This document shows positions 9,764 to 12,984 of a stretch of DNA of 64,000 nt, in pieces. Position numbers and translations under genes: made by a program. The stretch spans positions 1 through 64,000 of IMG/VR virus record IMGVR_UViG_3300044680_000048; one strand, 5' to 3'. Below the pieces are notes generated by a model, which was not told where the DNA came from, made no database searches, and saw only the letters and a program-made list of their open reading frames with translations. Position 1 is the stretch's first letter, and every line of letters begins with the position of its first letter. Source of the stretch: a virus.

Positions 9764-10942
9764 ATGACTAAGATTAAAAAGTTGACCAACTGTCAAGAAC
9801 AGGATATGTTAATTTATAGAGAAATATGGTTAGATCAAGGAAGATCTACCGCTCCTCTAGACCTGTTAAGGGTTCAAGATTCTGTAAATGATTTATATTC
9901 TTTAATTGATCTAGAGGCTCCTGCTTTAGTCCATTGCCAGAGTCCTTGGCAAATGGCTTATATGGTTGCCAGTTTTAAGAAAATAGGCAAATTTGAAGGG
10001 AATAATCTAAGGAATAATCTATGGAATAATCTAGGGAATAATCTAAGGAATAATCTAGGGAATAATCTAAGGAATAATCTATGGAATAATCTAGGGAATA
10101 ATCTAGGGAATAATCTAAGGAATAATCTAAGGAATAATCTATGGAATAATCTAGGGAATAATCTAAGGAATAATCTAGGGAATAATCTAAGGAATAATCT
10201 ATGGAATAATCTAAGGGATAATGAATTAGACAAAGAGTTCGCCCAATTTGCAAAAGATTCACATAATTATTGGACGTTCTATTCTCAGTGGTACTTATAC
10301 TGGCTTTCTTTTTATGACTTTCCCCGCTCTATTGGAATTAAATATACGGAAGAAGAGAATAAACAGTTAGACATTTGGCTGGAAGTTTCCAGGTCTGTAT
10401 TTGGGTGTGCAACCTATGAGGGCATCTGTTTTGTTTGTGAACGTCCAACTACTTTAACTGTGGACGCCCAAGGAAGATTGCATAATGAATTAGGACCAGC
10501 TTTAGCCTTTTCGGACGGATATGAGTTATATTATTGGCATGGTATTCAACTCTTGCCGGAAGATTATTCTAAACCTCTTGAAGTAAAGAGAATTGATAAT
10601 GAATCTAATGTAGAAGTTAGAAGAGCATTAATTGAAAAATATGGTCAAGCTAAATATCTCTTAGACTCAGGAGCGGAAAAGCTTCATGAAGATGACTTTG
10701 GAGTACTTTACCGGAAACAGTTAACTGGAGATGAGTCGATCTTTATGGTAAAAGTAGTAAATAGTTCGCCGGAACCAGATGGAAGTTTTAAGGATTACTT
10801 CTTAGGGATTGATCCCAAAGCTTATAGGGATGCTAGTAAAATAACCGCTAAAGCAGCAGTAGCTAGTACTTGGAGATATGAAGGAAATACGGAATATGTT
10901 TTCCCGAATCCTGAAGATTATATTCCTCTAGTAGAGACTTAG
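9764..10942 (+). CDS. repeat protein: N-domain + 18 x NNL[R/W/G] tetrapeptide repeats + conserved C-terminal domain
   Basis: 392-aa ORF, AGGAG 10 nt upstream. The C-terminal region (CERP..LHNE.GPAL.FSDG..YWHG...NVEVRR..IEKYG..) recalls, from memory, a bacterial family of unknown function with period-4 repeats. Confidence 0.8.
   Translation: MTKIKKLTNCQEQDMLIYREIWLDQGRSTAPLDLLRVQDSVNDLYSLIDLEAPALVHCQSPWQMAYMVASFKKIGKFEGNNLRNNLWNNLGNNLRNNLGNNLRNNLWNNLGNNLGNNLRNNLRNNLWNNLGNNLRNNLGNNLRNNLWNNLRDNELDKEFAQFAKDSHNYWTFYSQWYLYWLSFYDFPRSIGIKYTEEENKQLDIWLEVSRSVFGCATYEGICFVCERPTTLTVDAQGRLHNELGPALAFSDGYELYYWHGIQLLPEDYSKPLEVKRIDNESNVEVRRALIEKYGQAKYLLDSGAEKLHEDDFGVLYRKQLTGDESIFMVKVVNSSPEPDGSFKDYFLGIDPKAYRDASKITAKAAVASTWRYEGNTEYVFPNPEDYIPLVET
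10001..10216 (+). repeat. 18 tandem 12-nt units AATAATCTA[A/T/G]GG
   Basis: Read directly: 11 of 12 nt are invariant in all 18 units and only position 10 varies. Order is R W G R G R W G G R R W G R G R W R; 60-nt higher-order copy 10001-10060 = 10121-10180. Confidence 0.97.
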
Positions 10943-10944
10943 AA

Positions 10945-11130
10945 ATGCCTAAATTCTATAAGGTATATGCTGTTGCTTATACTGTTAATGCTGCTTATGC
11001 TGCTAATGCTGCTAATGCTGCTGCTGCTGATGCTAGAGATAAAGTCTTATCGGATTTTGCGGAAGATGTAGTACAGACACTTATAAAACTTAAAACCCCA
11101 GGAAGTAAATATCTTAACTTAACGGAATGA
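10945..11130 (+). CDS. small Ala-rich protein (61 aa) with conserved tail ..AEDVVQTLIKLKTPGSKYLNLTE
   Basis: Starts 3 nt after the repeat-protein gene; tail nearly identical in pattern to the C-terminus of 12055..12984. Confidence 0.6.
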   Translation: MPKFYKVYAVAYTVNAAYAANAANAAAADARDKVLSDFAEDVVQTLIKLKTPGSKYLNLTE

Positions 11131-11238
11131 GAGTTTGGGATTAAGGTATAACTCGCATCCGGAAGCCTTCGTTATACGTTCCCAAAAGGTCAGGGTATTG
11201 ACCTTAAAAATACCCGCTAGCCTTAAATGAAGAGTGGG

Positions 11239-11285
11239 GGGAAGACTTATTCCTTTGTAATAGTCTTCCCGTCTTCTGTCTTTTC
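11239..11285 (+). terminator. candidate intrinsic terminator
   Basis: GGGAAGACT (11239-11247) pairs with AGTCTTCCC (11262-11270), then T-rich GTCTTCTGTCTTTT; the loop is long (14 nt). Confidence 0.45.
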
Positions 11286-11307
11286 AACTCCGAAGATGAT
11301 CCCGGCA

Positions 11308-11377
11308 CATAAAATAGTTACCATTTGACCTTTCCTTAAACTGTCTGATACCCTAGTAATGTTAACCAAATGAAGGG
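11308..11377 (+). repeat. copy A of a ~68-bp conserved intergenic element
   Basis: CATAAAATAGTTACCATTTGACCTTTCCTTAAACTGTCTGATACCCTAGTAATGTTAACCAAATG.. about 85-90% identical to 13461-13526. Confidence 0.85.
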
Positions 11378-11630
11378 GGGGGTGCATGGCAAGTGGATCA
11401 TCTTCCCTATTCTATTTTTTGGTGGTGGAGAGAGTTATGAGTTCTCTATCATCCCTAAATTCCATTACTATGGCTGCGCAGTCTCTTCAATCTGGTTAGG
11501 CGTAGAGTTCGTCCTAAGGACTCAATTCGTTTGGCTGCATGGACTGCTAAAACGCAAACACTAAAATAGAGTTGACATAACCTCTGAGATTTTGTACTCT
11601 GTAAGAGGTTGAAAGTCGAGGTAAAAAGTA

Positions 11631-11891
11631 ATGGACAAGCTAACATTGATATTCACCAGTGCTACATTTGGCACAGTGACAACTCTCAATTATGTTGTTA
11701 ATACAAAACAAGTATTTAACTCCGGCGTTCAAAAGGTCATCTCTACCCTCAAAAACAAACGAGAAGGTAGCTTGGACATCAAGCTGACTTTCGAAGATGG
11801 GTATGTTATCGAAGACCAGTATCAGTGTCACATTCCTCAATACCGAGAATCTGAAATCAGAGATGGCGTAGGAATGCTAATGGGCTCCTAG
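11631..11891 (+). CDS. hypothetical protein (86 aa)
   Basis: ORF track; GAGG upstream; TTGACA at 11572-11577 with weak -10 TACTCT. Confidence 0.6.
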   Translation: MDKLTLIFTSATFGTVTTLNYVVNTKQVFNSGVQKVISTLKNKREGSLDIKLTFEDGYVIEDQYQCHIPQYRESEIRDGVGMLMGS

Positions 11892-12054
11892 TCTCTAGGG
11901 ACACAGTCAACAAATCAGTTGACATAAGACAATGTTGTAAATAAAGGGGGAAATAATGCCTACGAACGTTAACAAATTCCGGTTAATCTGTAGCAATAAA
12001 TGATTAATCAAGGCCTGTCGGCTTTCCCACACCCTACTAATTTAGGAGGATAAT

Positions 12055-12984
12055 ATGAAAATAACTAAGAAAATTGCCCAAACAGTATTGAAAACAGTAG
12101 ATTGTGGACTAGTATCAGGAATGGGTGTTGCAGAACCCGGCAAAATGTGCGTAGAGGCGGCCGTTTGTTACGCTATGGGACTGCCACATAGTGATGAACC
12201 GGAATGTGTTGATAGTATGCTCCGGCAATTTAAAATTACCCTAAATGATTTTAGATGGTCATCTAATGAAATACGGGCAAAGGGTCTCAGGAGATTAGCC
12301 CTCATTCAACTTGGGTCTAAAGATAAATTGGATAGAGAAGCGTTCCGGAAAGGTTTAATTAATCTTTCTATACGTAAATGGCTGCCTTTCGCATTAAGGG
12401 AAGCGGCAAGAGTTAACCCAGAACCTTATAAGACAAACCTAATAGAAGCAGCTAATAACTGTGAATTGAATGGGGACTATGAATCAGCAATAAAGGCGAA
12501 AGCTGCTGCTGCTGCTGCTGCTGCTGCTGATGTTGCTGCTAATGTTGCAGCTGCTGCTGCTGCTGCTGCTGCTGCTGCTGCTTATGCTGCTGCTGCTGCT
12601 TATGCTGTTAATGCTGCTTATGCTGCTAATCCTGTTGCTTATGCTGTTAATACTGCTGCTGATGTTGCTTATGCTGCTGCTGCTGCTGCTGCTGCTTATG
12701 CTGCTGCTGCTGCTAATGCTGCTTATGCTGCTAATCCTGTTGCTTATACTGCTGCTGCTGCTTATGCTGCTGCTGATGCTTATACTGCTGCTGCTGCTGC
12801 TGCTGCTGCTTATGCTGCTGCTGCTGCTTATGCTGTTAATGCTGCTTATGCTGCTAATCCTGTTGCTTATGCTGTTAATACTGCTGCTAAAGATAAATTC
12901 CTTAGTGAATGTGCGGAAGATGTAGTTCAGTTGCTGATTACATTAAATGTTCCTGGAGCTAAGTGGCTTTATTTGACAGAATGA
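12055..12984 (+). CDS. Ala-rich repeat protein (309 aa): Cys-motif N-domain + poly-Ala/AYAAN repeats + conserved tail
   Basis: AGGAGG upstream; N-domain motif MCVEAAVCYAMGLPHSDEPEC; about 130 aa of A/Y/N/V repeats; tail KDKFLSECAEDVVQLLITLNVPGAKWLYLTE. Confidence 0.75.
   Translation: MKITKKIAQTVLKTVDCGLVSGMGVAEPGKMCVEAAVCYAMGLPHSDEPECVDSMLRQFKITLNDFRWSSNEIRAKGLRRLALIQLGSKDKLDREAFRKGLINLSIRKWLPFALREAARVNPEPYKTNLIEAANNCELNGDYESAIKAKAAAAAAAAADVAANVAAAAAAAAAAAAYAAAAAYAVNAAYAANPVAYAVNTAADVAYAAAAAAAAYAAAAANAAYAANPVAYTAAAAYAAADAYTAAAAAAAAYAAAAAYAVNAAYAANPVAYAVNTAAKDKFLSECAEDVVQLLITLNVPGAKWLYLTE
12500..12890 (+). repeat. GCT-rich low-complexity coding repeat with internal exact duplication
   Basis: 12598-12660 is repeated exactly at 12826-12888 (63 nt), and the flanks extend the match. 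Confidence 0.9.

Follow-up and report, generated by a model that had tools for sequence, protein, structure and literature searches.

A portable tail module on alanine-rich repeat proteins encoded beside a DUF6745 gene in a phage accessory-gene block

Several described systems resemble the repeat proteins encoded by the phage sequence analysed here, positions 1 to 64,000 of IMG/VR virus record IMGVR_UViG_3300044680_000048 (64,000 nucleotides (nt), hereafter the window). The alanine-rich proteins of 309 and 61 amino acids (aa) have a counterpart in AGS80886.1 of Caulobacter phage Cr30 (236 aa), which comprises the head block GQMCVEAAVCYAMGLPHCDEPIC, an alanine-rich AADAAYAA tract and FLTNFAENVSNILIEMNVPAVQFLHLL, a tail of matching type. 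It was the best structural match of the 309-aa model in BFVD (E 3e-12). Compared with AGS80886.1 and metagenomic relatives, the window protein has the longest tract seen (132 aa), and the window adds a head-less copy. The Imm5_like family (PF21805) also shows helical, alanine-rich repeats and a short conserved C-terminal ending, and such a head was found fused to exactly the tail of the window proteins in two metagenomic proteins, P0244 and P0254. However, no PF21805 or PF14423 hit was obtained at E ≤ 1 for the 309-aa protein, the 61-aa protein, a 39-aa alanine-rich product of the window or 93 family members, and Imm5_like-type repeats are AAW and AAR, whereas those of the window family are AAY, AAN and AAD. 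A further window protein of 392 aa is related to gp174 of Microcystis phage Ma-LMM01 (PF20530, DUF6745), with which it shares the model match, the C-terminal end and an upstream His-rich partner (gp175), but gp174 lacks the period-4 repeat of the 392-aa protein. Address tags on variable cargo are known from ssrA-type ClpX degrons, encapsulin cargo-loading peptides and the phage T4 capsid-targeting sequence. The alanine-rich proteins may be likened to these, with a short conserved terminal peptide carried on exchangeable domains through a low-complexity linker, but the linker in the window is predicted to be helical, not flexible, and the likeness is an analogy only.

The window, a phage sequence, carried a block of small accessory genes on the plus strand at 1-17 kb, in which the repeat genes lie; a preliminary description of this DNA had placed them in an early phage region. 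Four open reading frames (ORFs) named there were confirmed with the translations quoted: 9764-10942 (392 aa), 10945-11130 (61 aa), 12055-12984 (309 aa) and 4410-4529 (39 aa). The description had treated them as one cluster of period-4 and alanine-rich repeat proteins with a common tail; the underlying observation is genuine but partly mis-grouped. With moderate confidence, the region is read as two independent repeat-protein systems lying side by side in a phage accessory block. The first would comprise 10945-11130 and 12055-12984 and combine a conserved helical head with a Cys/Glu/Asp block, an alanine-rich tract and a helix-PG-short-helix tail of about 31 residues, in which the tail and adjoining helix would serve in docking and the 61-aa ORF would be a head-less derivative. 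The second (9367-10942) would consist of a small His-rich protein and a DUF6745 protein with an optional period-4 helical repeat. Features described below lie on the plus strand unless stated otherwise.

The 309-aa protein (12055..12984) is a full-length family member with head, alanine-rich tract and tail, a layout shared by its homologues. Its conserved tail, KDKFLSECAEDVVQLLITLNVPGAKWLYLTE, is encoded at 12886..12981, and the tail of the 61-aa ORF, RDKVLSDFAEDVVQTLIKLKTPGSKYLNLTE, at 11035..11127. Both proteins match the consensus [RK]D..L..[FYC]AE..VQ.LI.[ML]..PG..[WYF]L.L, and the family tail follows the pattern RDK.L..FAE.VVQILIEMKAPG.QWL.LTE. The tail hidden Markov model (HMM) and the alignment statistics were built on 93 aligned family members, and the 61-aa ORF was left out of the tail HMM. 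This model scored 64.0 bits with the 309-aa protein and 62.3 bits (E 3e-17) with the 61-aa ORF. The two tails were identical at 20 of 31 residues and the 61-aa tail kept every near-invariant residue. The tail common to both ORFs is thus far beyond chance, and the tail module proposed in the preliminary description is real. Its proposed extent was too wide. The third ORF said to share the tail, the 39-aa ORF, gave no hit with the tail HMM even at E ≤ 10, and the 392-aa period-4 protein, included in the cluster, contained neither an alanine-rich tract nor a tail. An exhaustive HMMER search with the 61-aa ORF returned 68 hits, the query included; it was used in place of a word-indexed search, which had returned the query alone.

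The head domain (aa 1-145; 12055..12489) contains a G-x-MCVEAAVCYA-x-GLPH-x-D-x-P-x-C block. Its MCVEAAVCYAMGLPHSDEPEC motif was the most conserved block of the family across the 93 sequences, in which 27 head columns were invariant, including C32, E34, A35, A36, D47, P49, C51, R57, N64, D65 and W68. The head HMM scored 231 bits with the 309-aa protein. A search with its first 151 residues retrieved 728 protein clusters (E ≤ 1e-3). In the 120 best of these homologues, identity over the head was 53-76% and no Pfam domain was present; the head, tract and tail layout was common to family members, with the tail present in about 85% of those listed. Such identity between phages of about 38% G+C and far more G+C-rich ones makes the head unusually conserved. 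An AlphaFold2 (AF2) model on the family alignment was all-helical, with a mean predicted local distance difference test (pLDDT) score of 87; head and tail reached 96-98 (97-98 in the tail) and the tract 59-81.

The N-terminal motif had been taken to mark a widespread bacterial family. The size of the family was borne out and its bacterial nature was not. A pattern scan of IMG/VR yielded 256 family loci, compared with 25 in 185,579 bacterial and archaeal species genomes (one per species), where most were on contigs of metagenome-assembled genomes (MAGs), many of them alphaproteobacterial. Among 50,697 deposited phage records, Cr30, which is cultured and tractable, was the sole carrier, with AGS80886.1 as its first gene. 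By far most carriers of the family are phages. On long contigs, the gene was located among small phage accessory genes, near genes for terminase, Lar, Acb2/Tad1-like proteins and replication. The head was without a match in Pfam, PHROG, NCBIfam, PADLOC, PDB sequences or Foldseek-PDB. The PDB contained no significant match for the AF2 model of the 309-aa protein (best E 2.7) and none for a sequence profile, and a structural search of BFVD matched only uncharacterised phage proteins. Function by homology was likewise not obtained for the 309-aa and 61-aa proteins from Pfam, PHROGs, NCBIfam, PADLOC, PDB profiles or Foldseek searches of PDB and BFVD, and a literature search found no papers mentioning DUF6745 or alanine-rich repeat phage proteins. 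Curated resources thus contain no description of the head/alanine-rich/tail family, and both the modular tail and the head-less forms are newly observed here. A family with hundreds of members in phages of very different hosts has remained without a Pfam, PHROGs, NCBIfam, PADLOC or PDB entry.

The alanine-rich tract of the 309-aa protein spans 132 aa (12490..12885) and is predicted to be helical. Tandem Repeats Finder (TRF) detected a 354-nt GCT-rich array at 12502-12855 with periods of 9, 12 and 21 nt, and a short related array at 10974-11029, in the 61-aa ORF, whose tract comprises about 20 aa. The median tract length among the 93 aligned members was 58 aa (range 6-132 aa), and the longest tract was that of the window protein. 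The composition was 61% A, 10% Y and 8% D, and the non-alanine residues returned at i+3/i+4, like one face of a helix. Alanine richness was retained in the protein whichever codon prevailed, GCT as in the window or GCC as in G+C-rich phages. The family members P0111 and P0119 had identical heads and tracts of 28 and 56 aa, respectively, which indicates that tract length changes quickly; slippage of the short DNA repeats would be the means. Of the 28 IMG/VR loci with a head and no tail, 25 stopped inside the repeat at a contig end. Both repeat types, that of the tract and the period-4 repeat, appear to act as assembly breakpoints, so that genes of this kind are systematically truncated in viromes.

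The tail is a portable unit, found both on an unrelated head and on its own. P0244 and P0254, located in phage-like contigs, carry the canonical tail on a different head. In hhalign comparisons of the two with the family profile, only 37 tail columns aligned (probability 99.3%, E 1e-20) and the heads were unrelated. With the query counted, 17 of the 68 HMMER hits were ≤90 aa long, and several of these retained only the first head helix, or just 'MEIT', joined straight to the repeats. Stand-alone tail genes in other phages measured 52-86 aa. All three short hits that were checked, P0245, P0249 and P0265, proved to be genuine stand-alone genes. P0245 (56 aa) was identical in six contigs, five of them >50 kb, and in 69-kb phage contigs it was located between replication genes with its own GGAG site; P0249 and P0265 had their own intergenic spacers. 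In locus L100, a 66-aa head-less ORF was found 5.7 kb from a full-length family gene. This ORF (L100 49-249, minus strand) has a GTG start and stands beside ordinary-looking bacterial genes on a 530-kb alphaproteobacterial MAG contig; the region may be a prophage edge. Conversely, the same head occurred with at least two other endings, one type in P0062, P0071 and P0100 and another in P0022, and P0023 likewise had an alternative tail on this head. With the tail on other heads or alone and other endings on the same head, the architecture is combinatorial. The alanine repeat is inferred to be the joint for this exchange of heads and tails. A portable tail, exchange across a repeat and recurring tail-only mini-genes give what was an anonymous low-complexity ORF a defined architecture that can be tested.

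The second repeat protein of the window belongs to a different gene pair. The 392-aa protein (9764..10942) matched PF20530 with 145.5 bits (cut-off 27; E 1.7e-42) over aa 197-372. A 12-nt tandem repeat at 9999..10222 (TRF: 18.7 copies, 92% matches) encodes NNL[RWG] and thus its period-4 NNLx helical repeat. Among 277 homologues, the 120 listed all ended at the same conserved C-terminus (...AVASTWR...PEDY.P..ET), and a repeat detector found an analogous period-4 repeat (xNLx, xSVx, xQVx, AVxD) in 41 of these 120, placed after a conserved N-terminal region and ahead of the DUF6745 domain. The AF2 model reached a pLDDT of 85.6, with the repeat forming long helices of moderate confidence and the rest >90, and had no fold match in the PDB. 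Many DUF6745 matches were observed to start only after the period-4 repeat. Upstream, at 9367..9747, lies the gene for a 126-aa His-rich protein (phrog_27831; RQGDVL...GE.TGH.H...H.EH). The alignment of its family showed invariant E61, H67, H96 and H99 and the motif GE.TGH.H ... H.EH, and the protein itself gave faint cupin hints only. The DUF6745 loci of IMG/VR (L118-L197) were gathered with alignment A4, and L200 is the Ma-LMM01 locus. Homologues of the 126-aa gene were present on the strand of the DUF6745 gene in 60 of 87 DUF6745 loci, the window included, mostly adjoining and usually just upstream. The pair looks like a conserved two-gene cassette, and gp175/gp174 of Ma-LMM01 is the same pair. 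There it is transcribed: both genes were assigned to class B5, middle, with genes of replication and repair (uracil-DNA glycosylase, DNA polymerase; PMC5780444 Table S3). In the G+C-rich phage contig L054 (8795-9634), the small His-rich partner was fused to an HNH endonuclease domain, a hint that the cassette may be mobile.

The preliminary description had regarded the two repeat-protein types as a unit, and the gene neighbourhoods did not support this. Of 105 loci selected for the alanine-rich family, two (L054, L104) had DUF6745 ≤6 kb away, and of 80 selected for DUF6745, one (L145) had the alanine-rich family ≤6 kb away; both counts stem from scans seeded with patterns and represent minimum values. 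Gene order and strand varied among L054, L104 and L145. At the same 2-nt spacing after DUF6745, the most closely related phage contig, L088, has a gene that is unrelated to the 61-aa ORF. Co-occurrence thus exceeds random placement of two rare genes and falls far below an operon-like association. The adjacency is explained by shared accessory-gene hotspots of related phage lineages and not by an obligate partnership.

For the alanine-rich system, a mechanism can be proposed tentatively, with a docking tail, a spacer tract, a target-binding head and head-less competitors as its parts. The tail and the last alanine-rich helix would form an amphipathic helix-PG-helix element for docking or assembly, which may bind to another copy of itself, to the head or to some shared partner. 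Between head and tail, the tract would act as a rigid spacer that varies in length and as the recombination-prone joint for the exchange of heads and tails, and the conserved head would recognise and bind a conserved target in host or phage. The 61-aa ORF would descend from a second, P0110-like copy, the 5' part of which was probably lost next to the DUF6745 cassette. Its product, if translated by coupling, would act through the tail alone, for example by co-assembling with the 309-aa protein or competing against it. The genomic context makes a role in host interaction or anti-defence, as first suggested, plausible.

Several points weigh against this account. Homology gives no function for any part, and the putative docking role is drawn from conservation, portability and helical amphipathicity. 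The high pLDDT of the tail would fit packing on the head; head-less genes and head swaps would fit autonomy. Because contigs often break within the repeat, gene-calling fragments may account for some of the short tail-only hits in metagenomes. The co-occurrence counts are lower bounds. Finally, the 61-aa ORF, which lacks a Shine-Dalgarno site and has a single identical copy elsewhere, may be an inert remnant.

This last point leads to the alternative that survives best, considered possible and no more than that. It holds that the 61-aa ORF, and perhaps also the 39-aa ORF, is a non-functional 3' remnant of a second family copy, whose head was deleted or replaced when a mobile cassette landed, and that only the 309-aa protein is functional. 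The 61-aa ORF (10945..11130) encodes a short alanine-rich helix and the canonical tail, and its DNA was 80% identical to the 3' end of the 309-aa gene. Its tail is nearer to that of P0110 (26 of 31 residues) than to that of its 309-aa neighbour, indicating derivation from a second, older family copy. At E ≤ 10 the head HMM found no head remnant anywhere else in the window, in line with this alternative. The start of the ORF and the 392-aa stop codon are 2 nt apart, nearly the 3 nt first reported. No Shine-Dalgarno site was read upstream of it, so translation would depend on coupling to the DUF6745 stop codon. The claim that each gene has its own strong ribosome-binding site or promoter therefore applied to the 309-aa gene alone, with AGGAGG at 12044..12049, 5 nt before its ATG as read from the sequence, and failed for the 61-aa gene; promoter-like sites in 9300-13300 were no more frequent than in shuffled sequence. 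The 126-aa/DUF6745 cassette also looks mobile, given its occurrence in very different phages and the HNH fusion in L054, and in L088 the place after DUF6745 is taken by an unrelated gene. The sole other copy of the 61-aa ORF, on the 1.8-kb contig L001, was 100% identical, leaving no divergence by which to gauge selection since truncation.

Against decay stands the intact tail, which scored nearly as high as that of the 309-aa protein although synonymous sites between the two were saturated (dS, the synonymous divergence, ~1.3; ratio of nonsynonymous to synonymous divergence, dN/dS, ~0.26). The ORF itself is intact, with its ATG placed for translational coupling, and intact head-less tail genes recur independently in other phages, one of them identical in six contigs. 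The intact canonical tail and this recurrence favour a function of the 61-aa ORF, whereas the missing ribosome-binding site and the lost synteny in L088 favour a remnant. The two readings can both hold. One other reading of the ORF was rejected. A programmed -1 frameshift that would extend the C-terminus of DUF6745 into it is contradicted by all 120 listed homologues, which end in '...Y.P..ET', and by the sequence itself, in which TGA at 10912-10914 closes the frame and no X XXY YYZ motif occurs in 10915-10942.

That the head/alanine-rich/tail proteins are immunity-like inhibitors, analogues of Imm5 or Imm5_like that neutralise a host toxin or defence effector, is unlikely. Imm5 is a mostly alpha-helical immunity family that often occurs in toxin-less polyimmunity loci (PMC3482391). 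The fusion of the tail to an Imm5_like-type head in P0244 and P0254 speaks for this reading, but the Pfam Imm5_like hits of the two heads, 18 and 22.9 bits, were below the cut-off of 25. Genes with AAW or AAR repeats, Imm5_like by eye, were observed within about 1 kb of family genes in L041 (4863-5333), L042/L070 (4365-5000) and L112 (276-1046), which hints that helical-repeat accessory genes cluster together. The accessory neighbours of the family also include Lar, Acb2/Tad1-like and AcrVA2-like hits. However, no window protein reached any Imm family model even at E ≤ 1, and no toxin gene was recognised in the neighbourhoods read, where neighbours were mostly unannotated. Conservation of the head at 53-76% identity across very different G+C contents is atypical of fast-evolving immunity proteins.

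Less probable still is that the tail is a portable C-terminal address tag and the tract a 'slippery', low-grip helix, which would together allow the heads to engage an AAA+ machine such as ClpXP and escape degradation. The receptor might also be another conserved one, for example the capsid interior. Sixty-five of 154 family tails (42%) ended in -AA-COOH (LTEAA, EVAA, PLAA), compared with about 2% expected from composition, and the order of degron-like tail, alanine-rich tract and stable folded head from the C-terminus fits such a tag. The window proteins do not fit: both tails end in -LTE and neither has the ssrA-type -[LVI]AA-COOH. If the proposal were true, the proteins would be decoys or jamming substrates that block protease-dependent host defences, or would deliver cargo, and the head-less forms would be pure receptor competitors.

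That the DUF6745 period-4 protein and the alanine-rich tail proteins work together as one module, for instance with the 392-aa protein binding the 61-aa protein, is hardly credible: the tight 2-nt gap, the more-than-random proximity of two rare genes in the window, L054, L104 and L145 and the AAW-repeat genes beside family genes in L041, L042/L070 and L112 would agree with it, but co-occurrence was confined to the few loci counted above, order and strand differ, no tail ORF follows DUF6745 in those loci, the 126-aa gene is its different and strongly conserved partner, and shared accessory hotspots of related lineages explain the enrichment equally well.

The 39-aa ORF (4410..4529) is alanine-rich and not a member of the tail family, with which it has only an 'AA(A)RDK' junction in common. 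Its ending, EREWQINTLIDLI ('EREWQ..L..LI'), resembles the alternative ending of P0022, EREYQTQIFKEIFG. The motif E[RK]E[WYF]Q occurred three times in 3.3 million six-frame residues, and after an alanine run only in the 39-aa ORF. By this sequence resemblance to a single comparator, P0022, the ORF may be a head-less member of a second tail class. A GAGGA site was present 8 nt upstream, and the start codon overlaps the preceding ORF's stop codon as ATGA. Judged by eye from the N-terminus of the related 316-aa protein of L088, the glycosyltransferase-like 314-aa gene that follows may begin at Met27 (4541), in which case the 39-aa ORF fills the gap without overlap. The gene following P0245 in L085 is of equal length to this 314-aa gene, yet the two are unrelated.

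In the wider window, large minus-strand ORFs come after the plus-strand block. One of them encodes an SU10-type major capsid protein, and these ORFs are taken to be structural genes. A comparison at the DNA level found no cultured phage close to the window. The ORFs 3839-4222, 5400-5786 and 5779-5958 have a loose Cys-containing N-terminal pattern, 'G..C..G', in common, and one matches phrog_18067. ORF 3839-4222 was rejected as a distant paralogue of the 309-aa head (hhalign probability 0.2%), and no relative of 5400-5786 or 5779-5958 was found in the collected loci, no direct comparison of these two with the head having been made. About 500 nt directly 3' of the 61-aa ORF (11131-11630) contain few genes and fold slightly better than shuffled sequence (z = -2.27); Rfam gave no family match in 11050-12100. 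The 11-mer AGTTGACATAA occurs there and further downstream in two exact copies, a statistically marginal observation. The first copy (11570..11580) is located upstream of an 86-aa ORF and the second (11917..11927) 128 nt upstream of the 309-aa gene, and the 11-mer may be a -35 element.

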